A DNA stretch of 59,531 nt, filler included, from Asterionella formosa (taxonomy: Eukaryota), in NCBI GenBank assembly GCA_002256025.1. It is 12 parts of 12 records of this genome, joined end to end, with 100 filler letters (N's around TTAATTAATTAA, not from the genome) between each part and the next. Parts side by side here need not be neighbours in the genome. Positions count along the whole stretch, not along the records: positions 54,661 to 59,531 come from NKIB01013317.1; 11 more parts are not named here. One strand, 5' to 3'. Shown piece after piece: positions 1 through 58,864 of the stretch. The first letter of the stretch is position 1; each line of letters starts with the position of its first letter. The notes beneath the pieces are model-generated. The model saw nothing but the letters and a program-made list of their open reading frames with translations, was not told the DNA's origin and did not search any database. A program made the position numbers and the translations under genes.

Positions 1-555
1 GGAAAAGGAATTATTTGTTCTGTGTCTACGAAACACAAGAAGTTTGACTGAAGCAGAATTGGTTGGTGTTGACGACATTATTTAGAAGGGGTTGTGGACA
101 AAATTGTTAATATTGAAGTGAAATGACATAAAGTGACAACAAACATGATCTACCATGACAACACTAGCTCATTGAAGCTATAAGAGAACGAAAAAGCAAG
201 TTCAGGAAATCTCACATGATATTTCAAGATTAAGTATTTTTACATCACTGATCTTATTGAAAGAAAGCAAGTAAAGATTGAGTAGTGTTAAATGGATGCA
301 ATGATTGCAGAATGCATGACAAAACCATTGGTTGGTACGAAATTTATTCATTTTTGTACACAAATTATGGACTAAAAGTAAGCATCCTTGTCCAGCAGGA
401 GTTTCTCGGAGAAAATATTTTAGGAGACATCCTGGTATGAAAATAACCTACTATCTCTATACACATTGAATCAAATGTATCAGATTCAATTTTTCATCCT
501 ACAATCTCCTGTACGAAAAAATCCATTGTAAGTACCCTATTCGCAAAATTATTTT
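1..555 (+). mobile_element. Old, degenerate 3' end of a Ty1/copia element (RNase H remnant, PPT and partial LTR), related to Copia family A
   Basis: Stop-riddled homolog of 58175-58620 (GKGIICSVSTK..., MTKPLVGTKFIHF), then tccagcaggag and an LTR-like ggagaaaatattttagg. Confidence 0.85.
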
Positions 556-599
556 GATTGCTAAAGTTCAATTACTTACCAATATTTGACAGGCTCGGT

Positions 600-2744
600 T
601 TGCGCAGTCTTTCAAAGCCGCTGGGCACACTGGATGCACACATAACATATTCTTGGGTGTTGGCTACCTGGTACAATATCCATAGTAGAACCGGTAGTTC
701 CCTGATCATCAGTGATTGTACGCATTTCAGTCATACTAGCAGTAGAATGCACTTTGCCTCCATTGAATGGACAGAGTCTGCTGCTTTTCTTTTGATGATC
801 ATTGTGGCCACAATGATTGCAGACATTTGTTCAATTTTTTATTTTTTCTGATGTTCCCCTCTTAACGCAACACCAGAACCATAAGTGCTGACATCTGGAT
901 TCCACATTGCTCATATACTTCCCTTGTGTATTGTGTTGTTCCTTGTGTGTGTTGCCCTGCAACTGAAGCCACCGGATTCTGCAAACACCTTGTTTTTCGG
1001 TTATTTTTGCTGTTCAGTGCCTCATAAATCTGTGCGTCAAAGTAATGATGCAATGATTGCAGCTTTTCGCCTTCGACTTTTGTTGAAGCATGCAACATCA
1101 ACCATTTGTATAACTTCTTCCTAAACCATGTCATGATTTTTCCCATTACAAACCATTTTTCCTGATTTAACAGGGCACCATGTTTCAGAGCAGTAATCAT
1201 GGCAGCCAAATAAATTGTTGATTGGTGCCTTGGAGGAATTACTAAATTTGGTCAGAGAGAGTCTCCGATTTTTTTAATCCAAGCGCCATAGTAAACTTTC
1301 AAATGGAGGCAATCAGCTTTTTGTAGGACGCTCGAGGAAGACCAGGCCATTAGATTTCAGAAAATCAGGNNNNNNNNNNNNNNNNNNNNNNNNNNNNNNN
1401 NNNNNNNNNNNNNNNNNNNNNNNNNNNNNNNNNNNNNNNNNNNNNNNNNNNNNNNNNNNNNNNNNNNNNNNNNNNNNNNNNNNNNNNNNNNNNNNNNNNN
1501 NNNNNNNNNNNNNNNNNNNNNNNNNNNNNNNNNNNNNNNNNNNNNNNNNNNNNNNNNNNNNNNNNNNNNNNNNNNNNNNNNNNNNNGAAGGTTTCATTGT
1601 TCTGGGCCAATGAAAGGATGGCTGTAGTTTCAATAACTCCTTATAGGACCATTTAGAAACAGATCAAATAGTAGAATCATCATCACAGATGATTGTGGAG
1701 TGGATAACATCGTTTTTCATAACTGCATCAATCATCATTTCCACACTGGCGTCTGGTTCCATTGCCTTCAAACTACCAGTTACATGGTTCTTATGACAAA
1801 GATGTTTCTTGGTTGATTTCTTCTTGCACCATATAGCTCTGTCGCACACATTACAGACCTTAGATTTCACTCTGTAGTCTAGTAGTAATCTTTTCGTGAA
1901 GCCGTCAATACAAAAAGCATGCTGTCCACTTACTGAGTTAACCGCTGCTGCCATCCCATATTGCAACTAAATGTGAGTCGCAGCATATTCAGTATAAACA
2001 AGCAGTCTGTACCAGTAAGACTATTCCACCACTGAAAATCACATCCTTTGTCAACCAAGTCTCCTCATTCATGCACATTGACTGTCTGATATATTTCTTC
2101 TTGACACACCTCTTTCATTGCAAGAGCAGTTAGAGCAAATTCAGCCTTTCCAACTAGTTCCTCTACAACACCGAAATTACCTTGTTGCGTAGACCAAAAT
2201 CCAAGGTAAGTGGTAAGTCCATTGCGGAGCAGATGATATCTGCATCATCTGGTCCCATTCCAGCTTTTTGACAACCCAAGAAAAACTGTTTCTTGATAGA
2301 AAAGTCTTTTGCTTCTATTGCATTATTTCCTATCTCAACATTTCTGTCTCCATCGCTGTTGCTTCTTGCAGATTCAATTTTAGAAATCAGTTTCTGACAG
2401 GTCAACCAGGAGACTTTGAATTCGCTTGCCAAGCTGTAATATGCAGGAGAAACAACAATCAACGGTTGGTTCATTGTTGAAATCGGATAGTCAAACACAT
2501 CCTGGTCTAGAAATGCTTCACATTGCTGTTCGATGGACAGCTTTTGCTTTCGATTTGATGTATAGTAAGTTACAAAGTAAAGTGATTGTTTGCAATATTC
2601 TTTTACAAAATTGGTCACACAACTTTTGCAATACATATCTTCCTGCAGCAATTTCGATAATGAATTAAAGTCGAATATATGATCGACATTCAGTTGAGAG
2701 TTTGTTTTAATTGGTGATGTGGTTTTTGGGGGAAGAAATGGCAT
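600..2744 (-). pseudogene. Mutator-like (MULE, Phantom-type) transposase, fragmented
   Basis: Frameshifted pieces in MULE order: GMGPDDADIICSAMDLP; LTFSCNMGWQQR (about 1940-1978, DxGWQ motif); KSKVCNVC...CHKNHVTGSLKAME...IICDDDS; HYFDAQIYEALN. Confidence 0.75.
1370..1586. other. Scaffold gap (N run without linker)
   Basis: 217 N. Confidence 0.95.
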
Positions 2745-3996
2745 TTTAGAGGTCCACCAATTCTGATTTTCGTTGGCGACTATATTTCGTCCTCCTTTAC
2801 CACCAACTCCAATTTTGAAAATGTGCTGGCCACCACTGACACATCGCTTAATTTCTCTTTAGTTGTCGGTGTTGTTTTTGTGGTTGATTTGTTAGAAGGT
2901 GTAAAAATATAATTTTATTTGTTATTTCATGCCACCTTGCTTGCTCATTTCTAGAAGTTTTTGAAATAACGTACATAGGTAGTAGATTGAAGTTGATTTT
3001 CTAATAAAATGAATAAAAACAGTAAAAACACTAATCACTAGTAGATTAAGAATGTTTAGAGTTTGGGATTTGGTTTGAAACCAGAGTCCTGGGGGTCATC
3101 GGTTTTCAAGAGGGATCGAACCCCTTTCAAACAACAGTTAGGGAGATCCTGCCAAGCACCTTTACCCAATGGTCCACAAAAAGTTCTTATCAAAACTTTG
3201 TAGACTTGCGCGCTTTTGATGACGTGATGTCTTCATTCTTCATTCTTGTGAGAATGAAATTATCTTCCAAAAACTTCTCCACCAACTCTTCAACTTCATC
3301 CCATTGACACTGACATTCAGGGCAACCAAAATTGCAGCATCTGCAGAAGATACATGCCTCACAACCCTTCAATTCCAACTCTACAATTAACCAGTCTTGA
3401 CATGTTCGACATATATAATGACTGTTGTTAAATTCGAAGATGCCATTGTTATCCAAATGGTGTGTATTTTTACTCATGGTGGATTGTTGTAAAATCAGTA
3501 CCATATTTAATTTACAAAAGCAAACACAAGGCCCATTGCAAATTCATGATGATGCACTTGTTACTATCATATATATCTCGCGAAAGAAATTTCCAATGAT
3601 TCCCAGTCAAGGAAACAAATTCATTGATAAAGACTGTGTGAGATTTGAAAACGACTTTCTTTTGTTTGCTACAGTTTTCCCCATAATTTCAGCAACAACG
3701 AGAATGTCTGTACTAATTTTTTGACACACCATCCTGGAACTAGTAACAAGGACTTCAACAAAAAAAACTTGCTAAAAACTTGCCAAAACCTGTCATCGGA
3801 TTAGTCTTGGAGGTCAAAACATCTCTTGATTGTGTATAACTTCTAATTTCTAATATATTTATTCGCGAGAGGCAATGTTCCAATCACAAATGGGAAGATT
3901 TGGAACGTGTTTTGATACATTTTGTGCTGAGTAAACTCGTGTGGAAAAAGTATACTCAAGTCATGACATGAATGCGAAATCAACGTCTGCGAAGCT

Positions 3997-4997: not shown

Positions 4998-5951
4998 GCA
5001 GGAGAATTGTTGAATGCATTTTCAAACCAAGTCGCAGAAGTTACTTCGTCATATATGCGTTCTCCACAAGTTGTAAGTTTCACTTGTGGGTGACATACAA
5101 AATGTAGCATGATATCGGAATCACGTAGCAATCCTGCCATGAGCTGTACTGGTTCGAAATAATGGAGTGTGCGTGGGATGATCATATTTGAATTGTTATC
5201 AATCTTTATTTGTTTGGTCAACAGTTGACCACCAGCTAATGTTGGTGGAAATGAAATATCCATGCGTTTTTTCAATGTCTGATAGGATGGAGCTTGATAC
5301 CTTCCATCAAAATATTTCATTGCTTTTGCCTTGAACAGCCATTTCATTAGATGATCAAAGTAAACTGGTGGAAGGTAGGTAATTCTCGTTGAGGAATAAC
5401 ATGAGTTCTTATTCAATTGGATGCATGTTCAGAGAATGTTTACTTGGAAGTTGAAATTGAGGAGGAAGGAACATTTCCATTGCATTTTCAGGAAGAAAGC
5501 CGGTGCAATCTTGAAAATCTGAATATTGCATGGTTTCTGAATTCAACCCTTGGAGAGTTTTTAGTCTCAATTGTTCGTCCTGTTGTGACTGAATATTGTT
5601 ATAAACTGAATCGTCGCTGTCGTCATGAAGAGGATGATTGTGGTCACTTGATTCAAGGATAGGACACATAGTAATCTCTTCTTGTCTAATCTCCCTAAAT
5701 GCTGCAGCAGTCACACTGCCATCATTAACTTCTTTCCTTGAATGATTAGATGCACTACCGCAATACATAGTTTCACTATGTATTCCAGGAACTCGATGTT
5801 CCTGCATGCAATGTCGACAGTGACCATATGCATAAAGAACACGGTTGCTACAATTTCGATTGTGAGACTCAGATGGGGATTTGTTCTTCCGAAATTTGTA
5901 GTTACACAGAAAACACCATTGCAATGTCCGCAAAGACATTGCAAATTGCAA
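4998..5951 (-). pseudogene. N-terminal part of a Plavaka-like (CACTA-related) transposase, frameshifted and truncated
   Basis: Cys/His-rich N-terminus (CFLC...HNRNC...HCRHC), then LLRDSDIM...GERIYDEVTSATWFENA, resembling the Plavaka ERxYxExxTGxWW motif. Confidence 0.5.
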
Positions 5952-6539
5952 ATGATGACCAAGTCAGGATATGAAAAGGATATAATGAAAATGAATAAAT
6001 ATATAATAATAAATTGAGCGCCACTTCGAACATGCTGTGCTGGAAAATACAGAGTCGTGAAATTATCACTCCACCATAGTAGTAAAAATGGAGGTATACC
6101 GCTACATGTAGTACAGGCGGCACTAATAGTAATAGTAGTATAGAGCAGAATCAACGTTTTCCTATCATCTATGATATGGCTTGCATTTGTAGAAGTCTCA
6201 CACTAACTATAATTATTATGTAACTACTAAGTATGCATTGCTGGATTCTATTAGATCCATTCAAAATCAACATCGTCATCAATGTCCCGTTGATTAATGC
6301 GGTCATTATAATCAATATTCTTTTCATGAACATTTGGTTGAAGTGATTCAACAAATTGATGCATATCCTCTTTACTTACGTTGGGAAATGAGAAGTATGA
6401 GTGTGGGTAGATGATATTTGTGGTGGGAGTAGCAATTCCACTAGGATTCCTTCCATATTCAGATCGATTCTTTTGTGAAAGTCTAGTGTAGATTTCCTTA
6501 TAATAACCGATTAAATCAATATCATCAGTCCATTGGTGA

Positions 6540-8066
6540 TCAGTAAGACCATTTGAAACTTAACTTTCTTTCCTCACACTTTTTTAATAAGTGGTTTCCC
6601 ACCAATGTCGACAAAATGTTCTCTGAAATTTCATGGGTATCTGGATTGAAACCCAAATATTTTTGTTGCAATCGGAATTTTCCTTTCATCAACAAGTGGC
6701 AAAATGCTTCTGTACTGGCATTGATCAGCAAACCAACAAAACTTGTTTGCAATTCACAATGTGAAATTTGGTCACACCAGATTTGTCTCCTGTTAAAAAT
6801 GATTCTCCACGGCTTCTCCTGCCTGTAAAATACACTGGACCAAGAACATCACGCCAGACATGGTATCCTTGGCCTACCCTGTCAATGTCCTTTGACTGCG
6901 CAAAACGATAAAGCGTCAACGCCTACCTTATATAGTCATCAATACCCATAGTCTGGAAGTTAGTTACATTCTGTTAGACCAGCTGGTGTGTCATGAATTA
7001 TGTTAGCATTTTTTAATTGAAACATATTTGATAAAAATATAATCACCAACTCAAAAAATCATGCTTTCGGAGCATCTCCCTGCAAGAACTTACTTAAGAT
7101 TCCATTAAATTGATTATTTAATACGTTCTGACATTCTTTTGCTCAACTTTTTAATGCACATGCCACCAAATGTTGATTTAATATAATGTAAACTTGCCTT
7201 GTTGGTATGTTCAATAGTCTGATTCATCGGAAGTAGTGCATCAGAACCATTCCATATGAAATCGGCAAGCTCTGGGTCACTCTCCAATTCTTTGCCTAAC
7301 TTCGGTTTCACTGTGTATAGCCGAGTTAGGCAGGTCAACATTGGGCAAACCAATCCTGTTTTTGATTGGAAATGCCTTTCATACTACTTGGAACAGATAG
7401 GGCGGGATGTTTGATTCTCTTTTGGGACCAGAAAAAAGCACATTTGATTGATATTCTGTTTTACAGTACCTGCAATTCACAAACTATAACATCAAACTTA
7501 CATGTTCACAGCAAAACTTCTTGGTCTTGAATATAAAACTCACAACCTTTGTGACAATTGATGGTTCAATTTTAGCTAAGCGAGAACGACGTTCTGATAA
7601 GGCTGCTGAAATTGAAGATTCTTGATAACCTCGTATGGACGAGTTTTGAACCGAATTACGACCTTTGTAGTGATTGAGTTCATTGACCAATTGATAAATT
7701 CCTTTGGCAAGTGCAAAATGTTTTTTCCTCAGTTTGTCATGTACATGTTGGTCCGTGCAATTAGAAAATTTGTGATATGGTACCATGTCGTCCATCTGCA
7801 TCCGGGAGTTATTAATGGTATCATCGACAGGAGCCATTTTTCTTGTATCATTAACTGAAGTAGAAACGTCGCTCATTATCGCTTTCAGTATCAATTACGG
7901 GATCCTGTGTACTAGTAGCTGATGGTGTCCCCATCGACGATGGGGTAGTACCCCCAACGTCTCCCAATCGCCGATTGGGTTCCTTTGGATAATCACCTAT
8001 TCGCTTTTTCTTTGTTAACTCATTTTGGAACTTGATTCTTTGTTCCATACCGGCATTATTTGCCAT
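6540..8066 (-). pseudogene. Degenerate ORF fragments upstream of the Plavaka-like gene, possibly accessory ORF(s) of the same element
   Basis: Series of short co-oriented ORFs with no recognisable domain. Confidence 0.25.
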
Positions 8067-8339
8067 ATGTCGCTTGTTTCCATGAACCTGCCTCTTTATG
8101 GTTTTTTGAAGACATTGCTTGTACTACTAGATAACTGTTGTCGTTGTCTTCCTTAAAGTTCGATGATCTTAAATCAGGTGTTGCAAGCTACAATGAAATG
8201 AATCATCAGCCACTACATATAATATTTTACGCTGTCAAGATATGATACCATAAAACCAACAGTGCTATTTACATTATCATATACAAAATCAGAACCGAGT
8301 TTGAGTAATAGCATATCTTGTTTTCAATTATACAATTAT

Positions 8340-8463
8340 ACAATCCTAAAAATATGATGATTTAATGTCCTTCTGCAGTAGCAGCAGTCATGAACATATG
8401 GTGTTCTGTTGCTCTGCTTACTACTCCGACTACACTCTTTCAATTTTACGATTGTACAATCCT
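8340..8463 (+). repeat. Single long-variant unit of the 92-bp repeat arrayed at 53369-53870; 8136-8177 also matches 53328-53365
   Basis: caatcctaaaaatatgatgatttaatgtccttctgcagtagcagcagtcatgaacatatggtgttct matches the array unit. Confidence 0.85.
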
Positions 8464-8794
8464 TCACAGTAGCATTATAAGTCCTGGCTGTACAAGGAAG
8501 TTTTGATGATATATGCTGGTTCCGAAGCCGATTGAAGCATCGCTCTATTGACATATGTGTAGCATATGTGGACCCAAGACATCCAGGGAAACCTGCCTGT
8601 GTCATATCAAACATGTGATGCTCTGCTTCCAATGGGTTTGTTGGAGTTCTAACATATTTTTTGTAAAGGATGGTACTTCCAACTTCAATAAAGGCATGGA
8701 AGAATTGCCTGTGGGTCTCTTGACTGATACCAGTATTCTCCTCAATGTCATCAAAAGTCCATCCTCTCCCAAGGTACCTGAATGCTCCTAAAAC
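8464..8794 (-). pseudogene. PIF/Harbinger transposase fragment
   Basis: VLGAFRYLGRGWTFDDIEENTGISQETHRQFF...AGFPGCLGSTYATH (GFPGxxGSxDxTH motif, Asp mutated). Confidence 0.85.
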
Positions 8795-11503: not shown

Positions 11504-11770
11504 TGTTGAAATTGCGTCCCGAAGCACTCTATGCTTTCTTGTATCCTGTAAGGACACGACAGAGACCAAATAGGCTGTAGATATGAACAACGATGTCTCC
11601 GTGATCGATTGTAATCGTTCCTAAGAGTTTTAATAGAATTATGGGTTTTTACTGTTGGCGTAGATTGTTTCCGAATTCTCTGGTACCATATTCTTTCTTG
11701 ATTCATTTGACTCAATATGTAGTAGGTAATTTATACCGGGATTTTCTTTCCTAAAATATTTTTTCCAACA
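11504..11770 (-). repeat. 3' LTR of Copia family A (267 bp)
   Basis: Minus strand TGTTGG...TTCAACA, preceded by purine-rich ccagcaggagtg; homologous to 55159-55433 and 58585-58864. Confidence 0.93.
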
Positions 11771-11792
11771 CACTCCTGCTGGACACGGATGC

Positions 11793-14700
11793 TCACTTTG
11801 AATTCATAATTTGCTGACGAAAATGAATAAAATTCGTTCCAACCAGTGGTTTCGTCATGTAGTCTGCTAACATTGCATCCGATGGACAGTACTTGATTTG
11901 TAATTCCTTTCTTTCAATAAGATCAGTAATATAAAAATATTTGATGTTGAAATGTCGCGTGCGTTTTCCTGAACTTGCTTTTCCATTTGCTTCTAGCTTC
12001 ATTGCGCTAGTGTTGTCACGGTAAATGAGATTCATAGTTACCTTGTGTCCTTGTGCTTCAACAAATAATTTCGTCCACAACACCTTTGATATGATGTCAT
12101 CGACACCAACCAATTCTGCTTCAGTCGAACTTCTAGTGTTCACTTTCTGTTTCGTAGACATAGAACAGATAATTCCGTTTCCAAGTGACATTGTAGCTCC
12201 TGTGTGACTTTTAAAATCTTTGTGCACTGCAAACGCCGCATCAACGTACCATTTAATGCTCTGAGTGTCATCAGCACTCATAGATGCAACCTCATTTCGA
12301 GTTGCTTTCAAGAAATTCATGATCTTGACTAATTTTGCCCAATCGCCTTCATTCGGTTCGGTAGTTTGGGTTGCCAGAAATGCAATTCCTGGTTGAATGT
12401 CCTGTCTTTCTCGCTTACATAGGAACATTCCTTTCATAACAAAAGTATGAAATAATTTTGCTTTTTCATATTCAAGCTTCTTTGATTTGGTATCAACTGT
12501 GAACAATTTATCTGTCCATGGGAATTTTCCAACACCTTCAAGTTTCACTGGAAAATCATCAATCATTGATTTCACATATTTGGTCATGTCCACCCTCAAC
12601 ACTCCTGGAATAGAGTAATCTAGCGTCATCGCCAAATAATCATGCTTCTTTCCACGCATGACCTTGACTTCACCAATTTTGTCAGAAGCGTATTTCTGTT
12701 TGAGCCATTCCAAAAATTGATCATTCACTTTGCTGTTCACGTGACTTGATTTCAAATCGTCTACGTGCCAAGTAACTGTGTGCTGTTTGCCATTAACAAT
12801 GCGATTTGCAACACATGGATCACATGGGTTTACCTTGAATCCAATTGACTCAATATCCTTCCGAAATTTCTTGTAGTATAATAATGATGACTGTAACATG
12901 CCATATAATGCCTTGATCATCCTAACATATAGGACCTTGTTGTTCCCTTCATAAACAACATATTTTTCATAAGTCTCGGGGCTGAGTTCTGTCAACATAT
13001 TGACAAGTAAACCTCTAATCTTCATAATGATTCGCTCCCCTTTTTCTTTCTCATCGATATCCACTTGCACAAATGCATTTGGTATATCCGCAGTCATAAC
13101 GTCGCGATTTTGCTTCGCATCAATTGTTGCTGTTATCATAACAGATTCAGTCATGGTGGTTGGACTAGCTGCTTCATCTCTTTCCATGTATTCACATTGC
13201 GAGCTGCCATTGGCACATGCTCTGCCTTTAATGCTCTTGTCTCTTTTTTCAACCAAAAAAATTAGACTTTCCATTGCACGTCGCTTTTCGATATCAGTTA
13301 GGTCTTCAATCCTAATCGGTTCAAATACAACTCTATCATGTAGTTGTTTCATTTCTTTATAGGCAGCGTCTCTTCCTTTCTGTCCAAAATTCTTGAGGCC
13401 TTTCCTTAAGCCGTATCACTGAACAAAGTGAAATGCTTCTTTATCGATACACATCTCATTCATATAACACATTGTCTTTGCGATCACTTTCGCATATCAG
13501 TCGTGTATTCTTCTCGACAGTGTGCTTGGGTATGCAAATGATTTTGGACCATAGTTAGTTTTGATGGTGGTCTTGAGACTCTTCCAGACCTTGTAGTTCT
13601 AACATTTGTGTCTGAGTCATCCTGAGTGCTTGGATTGACTTCTAACAATGCCTCTTCATTTTCAGTTTCATTTGCTGGCTCTTCATCCTCATCTTGGATT
13701 TCATCTGCATTCATTTCAGTATTATTATCGTTGTTACCCTCAGGTTCAGGGTCATCCTCTTGGATATTGTTTAACTCAAGCTGTTCTGCTTCATATATTT
13801 CATCCGGAGTCATTTCGTCATAGTCTTCTTCTCCGAGAATTTCATCATTGCTTTCGTTATCACTAGCGTCTTGATCTTCATAATCTTCATCTTGTGCATC
13901 TTCAAATGCTTCAATTTCATAATCCACTCCTGCAATCCAAGCACTATCATAAAATTGTTGTCCCGTTCGATTTGATATCGTGAGACCATCTGGCATATTT
14001 TCCTGCAAAGAAAGGGCGTGTACTTGATTCATGATTGCTGGGGTAAGTGGTAGAGGAGTAATTGTTCGTCTAGTGATCAATGAATTTGTAGGTAGGTGTA
14101 ACAATTCATGACCTCCTTGCATGTTGTCATTGTAGCGTAGAAAAATGCAATCTATGCTGCGTGGTGCATTAGTGTTTGAAAACACAGGTTCTTCATGTGC
14201 TTGGACATAAGTGCCAAATGTATACTGGCAATGTCGAGCAAAGTCCAGGTTTCGTTGATGTAAAATCATACGAGGACTGTTATACAGGGATATCCCGTTC
14301 TTTGCCGGAAAGAAATTCAGTTTCCTTGCAGATTCTGTCACTAGAGTCTTAATCATCAGTCGCGGCAAATGTTTGAAAGGTAATCGATGATAAGCTGCGC
14401 GCACGCGTTCTTTAATCACTCGATTATTTCGCTCCGCTTCAGGAACATGTTCTTGTGGGTTTGCGTAGTTTATAGTGACTTGAAATTCATTGGAAATTTG
14501 TTCCATCAAAGGTTGAAACTCGTTGTCACAGTGGATTGTTGTAATTTTAAATCCTACGGTATTATAAACACGGAATACTTGAATCAAAGCATCTCGATAA
14601 ACTTCAGCTGTCTGATTCTTGACCCATTGCGCTGTCCTATACATAATGTTTCGAGAAATTGTGGTGAGAAATAATTGTCCGTTGACTTTCATTCCATCCA

Positions 14701-14892
14701 TGCACAGTGTTACTTCGCGTTGAGCTTGAATAAGCTCCTTAGGAATCTCGATGTAGTCGTTCACAACTGGCAGCGGCTTGCGACGAGTTGTCTTGCCTTT
14801 TAGTGTTCCGATGTCAGGTCCAAAAATTTTCTCTGCAATTTTGATATCATCGGTAGTCACTGGATTATTGTTGATCGTATTCATACGAATTA
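11793..14892 (-). mobile_element. pol: Ty1/copia (CoDi-like) pol: integrase, RT, RNase H; one 1-nt frameshift near 13495; 5' end cut by the contig edge
   Basis: Integrase D-D-E (CMDGM, HCDNEF, PEAERNNR) precedes RT (ADIPNAF, KALYG, WHVDD) and RNase H (YVDAAF, SSTEAE, DNTSA, ADYMTK). Confidence 0.97.
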
Positions 14893-14992
14893 NNNNNNNN
14901 NNNNNNNNNNNNNNNNNNNNNNNNNNNNNNNNNNNNTTAATTAATTAANNNNNNNNNNNNNNNNNNNNNNNNNNNNNNNNNNNNNNNNNNNN

Positions 14993-18654: not shown

Positions 18655-18849
18655 TAGGTAACTTTCAAATAGCATCAGTATATAACTTCTGGCGAGAAAC
18701 TGCAGAAAGGAACTTCGGGTTTTTTACTATGCCAAATAAGCGGATTTCCCCCGAAATTTCGAGTCTTTTTAGCCTAGTTAAAAAACCGAAGTTCCTTTCT
18801 GCAGTTTCTGACCAGATCCTATATACTGACATTATATATAGTGGACCTA
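18655..18849. mobile_element. Palindromic MITE-like element, copy 1
   Basis: Perfect 24-bp inverted repeat agaaactgcagaaaggaacttcgg (18695-18718 / 18786-18809) inside longer imperfect arms; ends TA-GGT...ACC-TA. Confidence 0.8.
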
Positions 18850-53300: not shown

Positions 53301-53368
53301 TAAAAGTGGACCAGCAACACGACCAGCTGTTGTCGTTGTCTTCCTTAAAATCGATGATCTTAAATTCA

Positions 53369-53870
53369 TTTACAGTCCCGCTGCAGTAGCAGCAGTCATA
53401 GACATACTATGGTGTTCTATTGCTTGCTTATTAGCTTCTCCGACTACCGCTTTTCAGTTTCACGATCATACAATCCTAAAACTATGATGATTTACTGTCT
53501 TACTGTTATAAAAACTATGATAATTTACTGTCCCACTGCAGTAGCAACAGTCCTGAACATATGGTGTTCTTTTGGGATTTAGTTTTACGATCATACGATC
53601 CTAAAACAATGATGCTTTACTGTCCTACGGTAGTAGCAACAGTCCTGAACATATGATGTTCTATTTGGTTTTAGTTTTACGATTATATGATCCTAAAACT
53701 ATGATAATTTACTGTCCCACTGCAGTAGCAACAGTCCTGAACATATGATGTTCTCTTTTGTTTTAGTTTTACGATCATATAATCCTAAAACTATGATGAT
53801 TTACTGTCCCACTCCTGTAGCAACAGTCCTGAACATATGGTGTTCTGTTGCTAGTTTACTACTCGGACTA
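53369..53870 (+). repeat. Tandem array of a 92-bp unit (about 5 copies)
   Basis: tcctaaaac starts at 53599, 53691 and 53783 (period 92); longer variant units at both ends. Confidence 0.92.
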
Positions 53871-55158
53871 CCCCCAGTATATCACTTACTACCTGCTACT
53901 GGTACTCTGCATATATATATGATATATTGCTATTGTCATATGATGTACCGGTACACATGAAGAGCTCCCAACCAAAAAAGGGGCTTAAACAATTTGCCAC
54001 CATAACCCTGGCGGTTATGACTTACAAGGTAAACGTAGTCGTGGAAAACAATGGACATATATTGCATTGAGTATTTTCGAATTATTTATATGCGAGTATG
54101 ATCATCTCAACCATATCAGATGTTCCATATCGAGAGCGCATTTGAATTTTATAAATGTTCAACGCTTAATATATATATATATTTACAAATTTTATTACTA
54201 TATACATGGCATATATATTTTTGAAATCGTTCTGTCTTGTTAACAAACAATGCCTGCTGCTTCATGAAAAGATACGTCGTAGTAAAGCACATGACAAGAA
54301 AAGAAAGTTTTCGCAATACATTACGAAAAACATTGTGACTTCGATACATTGGGCCTTCGAAGGATGGAGAATGTTTAAGGTAATGAAGCCATCAATGTGG
54401 TACTTGGATGACAATCGTTGGGAGGCAGGCAGGACAACAACAAATTGTTAACTAAACGCAGCCACATTTCCTTTTTTCTCAGTTGATTCAACAGCTCGTT
54501 TCGCTTGTTGGGGAGCACCAATGTAAAACAAAACCAAATTGCGTAAGTGCTCTTGTCGCTNNNNNNNNNNNNNNNNNNNNNNNNNNNNNNNNNNNNNNNN
54601 NNNNTTAATTAATTAANNNNNNNNNNNNNNNNNNNNNNNNNNNNNNNNNNNNNNNNNNNNAGAAGATGGTGTCACAAAGAGAATCACACTCACTCAAATT
54701 GCTCCTCTGTATATTCCTGTATACTTATAGGATCGAGTCTGCTGCACAGTTGGCGAAACTATTCCATCGGATTCCTGTCCAGTTCCTATTGCTACATCAG
54801 CCAGTTCAACCATATTCAGAATAATTTTGTGGATGTGGTGCCCCATTTTGTTTCCATTTATTTTGCTTTATGGGTGTGTGGTTAAAGAGGAGTTGTCAAA
54901 GCGACTCACAATAATTCAGTTTGACAAGCAGTCTTCAAACTCCACAAATCCATCATCCACCCACAAAGATGTGAACCAATCAAACCATGAACAGCCCCTA
55001 CAGGTTCCTTGGACGGATGGTGCAGAGCATACTGCTACCATTCACCCAGCAACAATGGTTGTGATGCCACCACCCAGTGCACCTTATCCTGTGGCGTCAT
55101 TGGAACAATGATCATGAAAATATGGTAACAGTTGCTTAGAAACTTAATTAATACATAT

Positions 55159-58100
55159 TGTTGGAGATATTATTTTAGGAACGAAAATCCTGGTATAAAT
55201 TACCTACTACATATTGAATCGAATGAATAAAAAAAGAATATGGTACCAGAGAAAACTCAGAATTTGAAAACAATCTACATTGTCAATAAAACCCATAATT
55301 CTACAAAAACTCTTAGGAATGATTACAATCGATAACTGCAACATCGTTCTTCATATCTACAGCCTATTTGGTCCCTGAGGTGTCCTTACAGGATACAAGA
55401 AAGCATAGAGTGCTTCGGGACGCAATTTCAACAGTTTTAATAGAATTAGCTGACCAGGAAGTGCAGCAAGATCACAATCAACAACAGGTGGACCGTTGAG
55501 AGTCCGGAGACAAGATCTGAGGGTACCAGACCATCCAGAGTCTGAAGAAGTCGCACAAGGCGCATCATGAGTGGCAAAGGAAAGTTTACCAACAAGAAGG
55601 CTCAAGCCAAGGGAGGGAGCAATATTGCTTCTCACACCATCAAGAAGTCAGTTAATGACTATAACTACTACCTTGGATCAGCAAAGCAGGCATCTGACTA
55701 TGAGACTACTACTGAGTATCTCATCAACTACATCAAGAAAGTGTTTGATTATGGCAGCAACATTGGAATCGCGCTCAAGTCATTAGAACCAATCAACACA
55801 TCGGTATGGAAGCCAAGAATGCAAGTGAGCATGGCAACAACAGAAGAAGATCGCGCTGCTGAGAATCGGCAATATGAGATTGAGTTTAAGGCTGATTATG
55901 ACACCTACAGTAAAAGGGTACAGGCCTAAAAAAATAATAATACCAAGGCATATGCGTTGCTCTAGGAAAGATGCAACAAAGCCACAAAGAACAAAATTGA
56001 GGCAAGATCCGATTACAATAGGATCAAAAAAATAACCCAATAACATTGCTTATGGCAATTAAAGAACACACACTGAATTTTCAAGAGAATCGATATTCAA
56101 TGTCGATCATTTTAGATGCGATGAGAACGCTTTTATTTACAAAGCAGGAAGAAGGAGAAAGTCTACAAGACTACACCAAGAGATTTCGTGTGGCACAGGA
56201 TGTGCTCAAGTCACACATGGGAGGACCCATTATCCTCACCAAGTTCGTTGAAGCCATGGATGGATACAATGAGAACGACATCAAGCTACGAGATAAATTT
56301 CGTGAACAAGCTTTCAGTCAATTTATGGCCTATTTATACCTCGATAATGCGGATAAAGCCATATACGGATCAATTATGACCGGGCTGAACACTCAACAGT
56401 CGCTCGGCAACGATCAAAACCCGAAGAGCATCACCGAAACAAATAATGTTCTCAGTCACCACAGGTTCGACATTACAAATAAACCCAACAGTCACAAGAA
56501 ACCAGGAGACCCTAATAAAAACAGAGAACAAAAGGATGCAAGGAATGACTCCGGATGAAACATATGAAGCAGAACAGCTTGAATTAAACAATATCCAAGA
56601 GGATGACCCTGAACCTGACGGAAACAATGAAAATAATGTTGAAACAAATGCAGATGAAATCCAAGATGAGGATGAAGAACCAGTAAATGAAACTGAAAAT
56701 GAAGAGGCAATGTTAGAAGTCAATCCAAGCACTCAGGATAACACAGACCCAAATGTTAGAAATAGCTACAAGGTCTGGAAGAGTCTCAAGACCTCCATCA
56801 AAACTAACTATGGTCCAACATCATTTGCATACCCAAGTACCCTGTCGAGAAGAATACACGACTGATAATGCGAAAGTGATCGCAAAGACAATGTGTTATA
56901 TGAATGAGATGTGTATCGATAAAGAAGCATTTCACTTTGTTCAGTCATACAGCTTAAGGAAAGGCCTCAAGAAATCTGGTCAGAAAGGAAGAGATGCTAC
57001 ATATAAAGAAATGAAACAACTACATGATAGAGTTGTATTTGAACCGATTAGGATTGAAGACCTAACCGATATCGAAAAGCGACGTGCAATGGAAAGCCTA
57101 ATTTTTTTGGTTGAAAAGAGAGATAAGAGCATTAAAGGCAGAGCATGTGCCAATGGCAGTTCGCAACGTGAATACACGGAAAGAGATGAAGCAGCTAGTC
57201 CAACTACCATGACTGAATCTGTTATGATAACAGCAACAATTGATGCGAAGCAAAATCAAGATGTTATGACTGCAGATATACCCAATGCATTTGTGCAAGT
57301 GGATATCGATGAGAAAGAAAAAGGGGAACGAATCATTATGAAGATTAGAGGTTTACTTGTCAATATGTTGACAGAACTCAGCCCCAAGGATTATGAAAAA
57401 TATGTTGTTTATGAAGGGAACAACAAGGTCCTATATGTTAGGATGATCAAGGCATTAAATGGCATGTTACAGTCATCATTGTTATATTACAAGGAATTTC
57501 GGAAGGGTATTGAATCAATTGGATTCAAGGTCAATCCAAATCCATATGATCCATGCGTTGCAAATCGCATTGCTAATGGCAAACAGCACATAGACGATTT
57601 TGAAATCTAGTCATGTGGACAGTAAAGTGAACGATCAATATTTGGAATGGCTCAAAATCAATACCCTTCTGACGAAATTGGTGAAGTCAAGGTCATGAGT
57701 GGAAAGAAGCATGATTATTTGGCTATGACGCTAGATTACTCTATTCCAGGAGTGTTGAGGGTGGACATGACCAAATATGATGTGAAATCAATGATTAATG
57801 ATTTTCCAGATAAAAATGAAGGTGTTGGAAAATTCCCATGGACAGATAAATTGTTCACAGTTGATACAAAATCAAAGAGGCTTGAATATGAAAAAGCAAA
57901 AATATTTCATACTTTTGTTATGAAAGGGATGCTCCTATGTAAGCGAGGAAGACAGGACATTCAACCAGGAATTGCATTTCTGGCAACCTGAACCACCGAA
58001 CCGAATTAAGGCAATTGGGCAAAATTAGTCAAGATCATGAATTTCTTGAAAGCAACTCAGAATGAAGTTGCATCTATGAGTGCTGATGACATTCAGAGCA

Positions 58101-58864
58101 TTAAATGGTACGTTGATGCGGCGTTTGCAGTACACAAAGATTTTAAAAGTCACACAGGAGCCACATTGTCACTTGGAAACGGAATTATTTGTACTATGTC
58201 CACAAAACAGAAAGTGAACACTAGAAGTACGACTGAAGCAGAATTGATTGGTGTAGATGATATTTTATCAAAGGTGGTGTGGACGAAATTATTTATTGAA
58301 GCACAAGGACATAAGGTGACTACAAATGTCATTTACCGTGACAACACTAGCGCCATGAAGCTAGCAGCAAATGGAAAAGCAAGTTCAGGAAAACACGCGA
58401 CATTTCAACATCAAGTATTTTTATATTACTGATCTTTTTGAAAGAAAGGAAGTACAAATCAAGTACTGTCCATCGGATGCAATGTTAGCAGACTACATGA
58501 CAAAACCACTGGTTGGAACGAAATTTATTCATTTTCGTCAGCAAGTTATGAATTCAAAGTGAGCATCCGTGTCCAGCAGGAGTGTGTTGGAGAAATTATT
58601 TTAGGAAAGAAAATCCCGGTATAAATTACCTACTACATATTGAATCGAATGAATAAAAAAAAGAATATGGTACCAGAGAAAACTCAGAATTCGAAAACAA
58701 TCTACGCCAACGCACAGTAAAACCCATAATTCTACTAAAACTCTTAGGAACGATTACAATCGATTACGGAGACATCGTTGTTCATATCTACAGCCTATTT
58801 GGTCCCCGACGTGTCCTTACAGGATACAAGAAAGCATAGAGTGCTTCCGGACGCAATTTCAACA
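55159..58864 (+). mobile_element. Copia family A element with both LTRs (55159-55433, 58585-58864), internally deleted and pseudogenised
   Basis: TGTTG...CAACA LTRs; gag from ATG 55567 (YYLGSAKQASDY) with stops; gag fused at ~56545 to the IN-RT linker; RT/RNase H highly similar to 11793-13810. Confidence 0.95.
55434..55448 (+). promoter_or_regulatory. Candidate self-primer binding site (non-tRNA PBS)
   Basis: GTTTTAATAGAATTA directly follows the 5' LTR and is complementary to the LTR-internal TAATTCTATTAAAAC. Confidence 0.6.

Follow-up and report, generated by a model that had tools for sequence, protein, structure and literature searches.

Structure of the LTR element and its primer-binding site

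A window of 59,531 nucleotides from the Asterionella formosa assembly GCA_002256025.1, consisting of parts of 12 records joined end to end, was analyzed with respect to a long terminal repeat (LTR) element located at positions 55159-58864 on the plus strand. The element is bounded by a 5' LTR of 275 bp (55159-55433) and a 3' LTR of 280 bp (58585-58864), which are direct repeats of the form TGTTG...CAACA with approximately 91% identity to each other; the 5' LTR was aligned with three other LTRs of the family. Between them, and on the same strand, lie remnants of gag (55567-56558), present as two open reading frames (ORFs) in different frames with stops inside, and remnants of reverse transcriptase (RT) and RNase H (56753-58562), which matched the Pfam RVT_2 model with an E value of 2.2e-5 and a score of 24.6 bits, under the Pfam cut-off. 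The polypurine-tract-like sequence CCAGCAGGAGTG (58573-58584) adjoins the 3' LTR on its 5' side, and the same motif was also present before the LTR in three relatives of the element (L002, L017 and L065).

Directly 3' of the 5' LTR end at 55433, with no spacer, is the sequence GTTTTAATAGAATTA (55434-55448, plus strand), which occupies the place of the primer-binding site (PBS) and is referred to here as the right arm. A sequence-only reading of this DNA had claimed that these 15 nt are complementary to a segment inside the LTR, and this complementarity was re-found: the reverse complement of GTTTTAATAGAATTA is located at 11627-11641 on the minus strand with no mismatches (15/15), at 58727-58741 within the 3' LTR with one (14/15), and at 55296-55310 within the 5' LTR with two (13/15). 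Further complements were found only at three mismatches and represent noise, with six found versus 4.95 expected overall. When the LTRs were mononucleotide-shuffled, the observed score was reached in 63/20000 shuffles of the 5' LTR and in 4/20000 shuffles of the 3' LTR. The same reading had placed the end of the pairing opposite the base next to the LTR terminus; the complementarity there is real, but the helix is one base longer than was claimed, as T55311 stands opposite A55433, the last base of the LTR, and adds a pair to give 16 nt in intact family copies such as L002. The LTR segment at 55296-55311 (plus strand), decayed in the window copy, is the putative self-primer and is referred to as the left arm. 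The minimum-free-energy fold of the intact L002 leader has the two arms paired (z = -4.1).

As had also been noted from the sequence, no TGG of the kind found in a tRNA-type PBS is present at 55434-55448. ARAGORN detected no tRNA gene within the window, and Rfam gave no match in the region. Two further short features flank the left arm on the plus strand, namely a CA at its outer edge (55294-55295), a putative initiator and transcription start, and the sequence CTTAGG directly 3' of it (55312-55317), a candidate context for cleavage by RNase H which is conserved across families.

Survey of related elements

A search with the gag ORF returned 105 homologues, of which one, from Fragilaria crotonensis, came from a named organism. 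Metagenome contigs were then scanned with the gag alignment, giving 218 matching stretches; a relative of gag is encoded by 131 of them, and of these the best 80 were kept. In each locus the region 1150-300 nt upstream of the gag match was searched for its longest perfect inverted repeat, with loops of 60-320 nt allowed and without presupposing a motif. Sufficient upstream sequence (at least 450 nt) was available for 52 of the 80 loci, the remaining 28, with less than 450 nt, being excluded. Of the 52 scanned loci, 41 contained a perfect inverted repeat, its arms 13-17 nt long and its loop 61-175 nt, as compared with 0/46 coding stretches of the same size and 6/1040 shuffles. Allowing a single mismatch (14/15) added five loci (L024, L048, L061, L065 and L067), and L052, which was too short for the scan and stands outside the 52, showed a match of 15/15.

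The relatives most informative about the window family differ in their distance from it. L002 is an 89% identical copy in which the LTR segment matches the PBS at 15/15 positions, or 16 with the terminal pair. L003, with 74% identity in gag, and L017 have LTR ends which are recognisably related to that of the window element, and quite different post-LTR sequences. In both, the post-LTR site is perfectly complementary to the LTR of the element that carries it, and the matching LTR segment occupies the same position, right before the conserved sequence TCTTAGGAA.

A further arrangement was observed in several of the metagenome contigs. In L019, 3241 nt are repeated at 100% identity (1-3241 and 5267-8507) with a period of 5266, and L019, L002, L008, L017, L028 and L035 all run from an internal 3' end through a polypurine tract and one LTR to PBS and gag. 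Such contigs may represent elements in tandem, circles with a single LTR, or cycles produced in assembly.

Covariation between the two arms

The 41 loci carry 31 distinct arm sequences, referred to below as families, which differ from one another at a median of 7 positions within the inner 13 nt. Three or four Watson-Crick pair types occur among the 31 families at every one of 13 pair positions. For the analysis of covariation, 8 of the 31 representatives were aligned, picked for alignable LTR ends; a MAFFT alignment of all 31 was gapped inside the arms and was excluded from the pair counts. Using the eight diverse sequences RNAalifold recovered the arm helix unprompted, and changes on both sides were present at 12 of its 15 pairs. 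The covariation score was 0.695 versus 0.204 for shuffled alignments, none of 500 shuffles scored that high, and slid registers of the same arms gave only 0.04-0.19. Covariation of the post-LTR site with the LTR segment in relatives, which the sequence-only reading had put forward as a test, was strongly borne out, with 31 different arm pairs, every one complementary and set against the LTR end, and with compensatory change at 12/15 pairs in the eight sequences. A second helix, formed by alignment columns 111-115 with 177-181, showed changes on both sides at 4/5 pairs in the same eight sequences.

The placement of the right arm is also conserved. CAAC or CAACA stands directly before it in 28/31 families, and in L065, for which two LTRs with unrelated flanks are available, the LTR ends exactly at the start of the right arm. 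TGG was found within the first 9 nt of the site in 0/31 families. With respect to the left arm, CT[TA]AG or CTAGG starts no more than 1 nt after it in 22/31 families. The trinucleotide CCG within 4 nt after the right arm (16/31 families) is likewise conserved.

Position of the left arm and RNA data

In 29/31 families a CA, whose A falls at position -1 or +1 relative to the left arm, marks its outer edge, and YCA is present in 24/31 against a background frequency of 0.066. The sequence around this edge is A/G-rich upstream and T-rich downstream. The arm-edge CA resembles the initiator motifs YYA+1NWYY and oomycete YCAYTYY quoted in PMC3599244, and the diatom initiator TCAH+1W proposed in PMC4686930. 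Distances between arm and LTR end range over 75-189 nt, and a TGTTGG-like LTR start, found in 18/31 families, lies 71-350 nt upstream of the arm. Most likely the left arm marks the first bases of the RNA, as it does in the Tf1 element of S. pombe, and the putative start near CCCAT (~55295) which the sequence-only reading had guessed fits the conserved CA.

Sequencing runs were also compared with the element. The likely source DNA run contained many variant contigs, with 28774 contigs aligned, and gag was covered in three RNA libraries from three studies, with DNA carry-over a possible source of that coverage. Contigs from RNA runs of two studies (55078-55221 and 55016-55221) extend from the 5' flank into the LTR with 0-2 differences, one of them at high depth. 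Both stop where private variants end and are uninformative on the start; they represent either carried-over DNA or a host transcript that reads through from upstream. At 55335-55468 the summed depth of the RNA runs rises up to ~100x that of neighbouring bins over the conserved U5 end, and many contigs diverge from the reference exactly at 55433-55435. This suggests related, more highly represented families with the same U5 end.

Superfamily assignment and state of the window element

The RVT_2 model, with a cut-off of 31.6 bits, scored 46.2 bits in a second copy of the family within the window (copy 2, described below) and 32.9 in L019, both over the cut-off; L003 (30.6) and the window element (24.6) were under it. 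L003 has an intact ORF of 1646 aa with an RVT_2 RT at residues 1163-1393. No integrase core was detected by sequence in Pfam searches (E up to 5, including rve) or in a PDB sequence search; these searches gave only a weak SH3-like match. Residues 520-880 of L003 were therefore modelled with 19 aligned relatives, and the predicted structure is a retroviral-type integrase fold (predicted local distance difference test score, pLDDT, 77), for which Foldseek returned HIV-1 integrase with an E value of 1.4e-10 and also the integrases of Rous sarcoma virus and maedi-visna virus. The part of L003 homologous to the upstream ORF of copy 2 is the part predicted to fold as integrase.

On the basis of a copia-type RT, and of the modelled integrase encountered upstream of RT in L003, the window family is assigned to Ty1/copia. 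Membership in Tf1/sushi, a chromovirus group of Ty3/gypsy with a gypsy-type RT and the order PR-RT-RH-IN, was considered and rejected, since the RT is of the RVT_2 type and an integrase preceding it, as in L003, is the arrangement of Ty1/copia. The family nonetheless seems to function as Tf1/sushi elements do. It probably belongs to the diatom CoDi copia-like elements.

The window element itself is evidently dead, with protease and integrase deleted between gag and RT and with gag broken. Its homology to copy 2 starts only at RT, at element position 1366 (window 56524). It is a deletion derivative, and the parts it has retained, namely LTRs, self-primer, PBS and gag, are those that a non-autonomous rider would be expected to keep. 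A G follows each of the three family LTR ends in the window (55434, 58865 and 11503). The 5-bp flanks of the element are unequal (CATAT versus GTATA), with a match at 4/5 positions if the 3' LTR is taken to be one base longer, and the integrated LTR end in the window family may be ...CAACAG. An AATAAA at 55285-55290 is private to the 5' LTR copy of this element.

Other copies and repeats in the window

Copy 2 lies on the minus strand and comprises RT-RNase H and a 3' LTR (11504-13833, with the LTR at 11770-11504), at 92% identity to the window element; its left arm is the intact one at 11627-11641, with 15/15 positions complementary to the PBS, or 16 with the T:A pair. Protease and integrase, which the window element has lost, are retained in part by copy 2. 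Upstream of its RT an ORF (13484-14884, minus strand) showed a weak match to SH3_retrovirus, an integrase-associated SH3-like domain, with an E value of 0.0049 that is under the cut-off. Neither a 5' LTR nor gag of copy 2 is present within the window, so that the window holds only one PBS of the family. The pol ORF of copy 2 is broken by a pair of N runs (14893-14992). Such pairs of 44-N runs occur every ~5 kb in the window, and there is one run of 217 N at 1370-1586.

A window-wide scan for more perfect repeats of the same geometry found none with the CAAC(A) and CTWAG flanks. The fragment at positions 1-480 is 77% identical to the RT/RNase H of the window element (element positions 3017-3496) and represents another copia family related to the first. 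At 18695-18809 lies an inverted repeat, perfect over 24 nt and closed by a 67-nt loop, which is unrelated to the LTR family, and at 53368-53849 there is a tandem array with a 92-bp period, of ~4-5 copies at 73-90% identity.

Proposed priming mechanism and alternative explanations

Taken together, we consider it likely that the window element is a dead, internally deleted member of a diatom Ty1/copia lineage which, like Tf1, uses the 5' end of its own RNA as the primer for minus-strand synthesis. Transcription would begin at, or within a base of, the conserved CA at 55294-55295. The first ~16 nt of the RNA (55296-55311) would then fold back across ~120 nt of R-U5, which would itself form hairpins, and pair with the 16 nt straddling the LTR end (55433-55448). 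The element's RNase H would nick the RNA at the left arm's 3' end, right before the conserved CTTAGG, and the freed 3'-OH, lying opposite the last base or bases of U5, would prime strong-stop DNA. During plus-strand synthesis the primer would be copied, by analogy with retroviral replication, so that the PBS would be rewritten from the primer in each cycle. We propose that primer and PBS would as a consequence drift jointly, leaving each family with a pair of its own. What was observed directly in support of this scheme is the complementarity of the two arms, the exact abutment of the duplex to the LTR end, the covariation of the arms and the lack of a tRNA-type PBS; where transcription starts, the RNase H cut, the priming as such and PBS rewriting are inferred.

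Several observations weigh against this interpretation. In the window copy the PBS has two mismatches with the 5' LTR and one with the 3' LTR, and the leader folds no better than shuffled sequences (z = -1.46). No repeat was found in 6/52 scanned loci (L033, L036, L059, L062, L063 and L073): L036 has kept the left arm and lost the LTR end and PBS, L059 has kept the PBS in front of which the LTR is truncated, L062 and L063 are decayed, and L033 and L073 are without a recognisable LTR end. All relatives come from a single gag-defined clade and so do not count as independent lineages. A check of the LTR end against both LTRs covers two elements only, the window element and L065, the CAAC(A) terminus being used elsewhere, and the exact LTR/PBS border is uncertain by ~1 nt because of the G after all three LTR ends and the unclean 5-bp duplication. 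The CA and YCA motifs at the arm edge carry little information, and the runs that were compared, 4 of 24 (X24, X9, X20 and X1), are all assembled contigs and as such unable to show RNA ends.

Among the alternatives, the one that survives best retains self-priming and places the primer inside the RNA, with a start farther upstream, for instance downstream of the TATAAA at 55194-55199, and hence with a 5' tail on the primer; strand transfer would then use no more of R than lies downstream of the cut. This TATAAA lies ~100 nt upstream of the arm in the window family, and RNA-run contigs do cover the LTR upstream of the arm, although they may derive from 3' LTRs, read-through or DNA. TATAWA is however found upstream in 3/31 families only, and a TATA box at a fixed distance was accordingly dropped as a candidate feature. 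Furthermore, the duplex ends at a conserved CA in 29/31 families, which an internal segment would not need, and the LTR start, where found (18/31 families), can be as close as 71 nt on the upstream side of the arm, so that a promoter farther upstream would have little space. We therefore regard an internal primer as unlikely.

A more distant alternative is that the helix is a long-range RNA structure with some other role, such as packaging, dimerisation, cyclisation or masking of a poly(A) signal, and that another RNA primes. Pairing between the 5' and 3' ends near the PBS occurs in Ty1, through the CYC5 and CYC3 elements, and in the diatom family the left arm is also present in the 3' LTR and hence in the 3' end of the RNA. 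A poly(A) signal inside the segment was seen in the first three families; over the whole set A[AT]TAAA is present in 7/31 arms and absent from 24/31, and this candidate was dropped. Such a role would also not account for the right arm abutting the LTR end in 28/31 families, the exact place for the 3' end of a primer, nor does any alternative PBS present itself, with TGG in 0/31. On this evidence a structure of other function is distinctly improbable.

Priming by a host RNA with complementarity to 55434-55448 (a tRNA, half of one or another small RNA), which the LTR segment would then mimic, is very unlikely, because the PBS is hypervariable and TGG was found in none of the 31 sites. There are 31 site sequences in related families and each is matched by its own LTR; in addition, as noted above, neither a tRNA gene in the window nor an Rfam match in the region was found. 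Lastly, although the arms are 81% A+T and the motif occurs at background level in the window at three mismatches, a chance inverted repeat in AT-rich DNA is refuted by the shuffle counts for both LTRs, by the excess of repeats in the scanned loci over shuffles, and by the conserved position and covarying pairs, and its probability is negligible.

A stronger form of the preferred reading, self-priming from the RNA's own 5' end, would hold that for this diatom copia clade as a whole, self-priming from the initial bases of the RNA is obligate, and that rewriting of the PBS lets each family drift to a private 15-nt pair. This we regard as a possible but doubtful extension. If true, obligate self-priming would free these elements from host tRNAs, and private pairs could shield them both from cross-priming between families and from host small RNAs directed against tRNA-type PBSs.

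Comparison with known systems

To our knowledge, the gypsy-type element Tf1 is the only one for which self-priming is proven; for a few other groups it is predicted. In Tf1 the RNA's initial 11 bases form a duplex with the PBS, and the RNase H cut falls between bases 11 and 12 (PMC7175516). The diatom family resembles Tf1 and the Tf1/sushi elements in having a PBS directly after the 5' LTR with complementarity to RNA derived from its own LTR, with the primer 3' end facing the end of U5, and no tRNA site; a U5 hairpin is predicted between its arms and may be a further likeness. The 3' end of the diatom left arm stands opposite either the LTR's last base or the first base past it. It differs in that Tf1 belongs to Ty3/gypsy whereas the diatom family has an RVT_2 RT with integrase upstream of it, in that the arms are 13-17 nt in the diatom clade rather than 11, and in the conserved CTWAG after the diatom arm. 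In Tf1, moreover, the mechanism was proven by experiment, while start, cut and priming in the diatom family are inferred.

Two kinds of Ty1/copia element which lack a standard tRNA site provide a contrast. The fungal GalEa elements have no tRNA PBS and carry at the PBS position a 'Conserved Hairpin Site' which includes the last A of the LTR (PMC5445492); the diatom family shares with them a copia-type pol, the lack of a tRNA PBS and a conserved structure at the PBS position that takes in the last A of the LTR. The GalEa site is however a 9-bp palindrome with its partner downstream, and its authors report that no LTR complement was found. A hairpin of the GalEa type was rejected for the window element, where the site is not palindromic and its partner is in the LTR. 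Elements of the copia, Ty5 and Osser type are primed by half of the initiator tRNA-Met, and their sites are conserved as the tRNA is (PMC6317226). They too are Ty1/copia elements with a PBS not starting with TGG, whereas the diatom site differs in every family and matches the family's own LTR.

Copia-type LTR elements of diatoms have themselves been described as CoDi elements, which the window family resembles in this respect, by Maumus et al. 2009, the title of which has them as abundant and stress-activated. A term search of that paper gave no mention of tRNA, and 'PBS' only as a buffer. In the literature searched, which mostly did not extend to subscription journals, no description of self-priming or of the PBS type was found for diatom copia elements. 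The present data would add diatoms to the hosts of self-primed elements, and pipelines which seek tRNA PBSs will label such elements as 'PBS-less'.

The closest parallel is the TAR lineage of plant Ty1/copia elements. The sequence-only reading had supposed that self-priming was undescribed for Ty1/copia, which is incorrect, as it was predicted for the whole TAR lineage by Neumann et al. 2019 (PMC6317226), who cite an earlier proposal for the TAR members Houba and Osr-1. The rule applied in that work is an LTR region complementary to a stretch of 10 bp or more whose start lies 0-5 bp past the 5' LTR, and under it the window family would be classed as self-primed. Both groups are Ty1/copia elements without a tRNA PBS; the hosts differ, being land plants for TAR and a diatom-like alga here. 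The diatom clade is a new self-primer lineage of a known kind and not the first in copia. What it contributes is a set of 31 natural primer/PBS variants covarying within one clade, comparative support of unusual depth for self-priming in Ty1/copia, and if the plant TAR lineage shares self-priming with it by descent, this mode of priming would be old within Ty1/copia.

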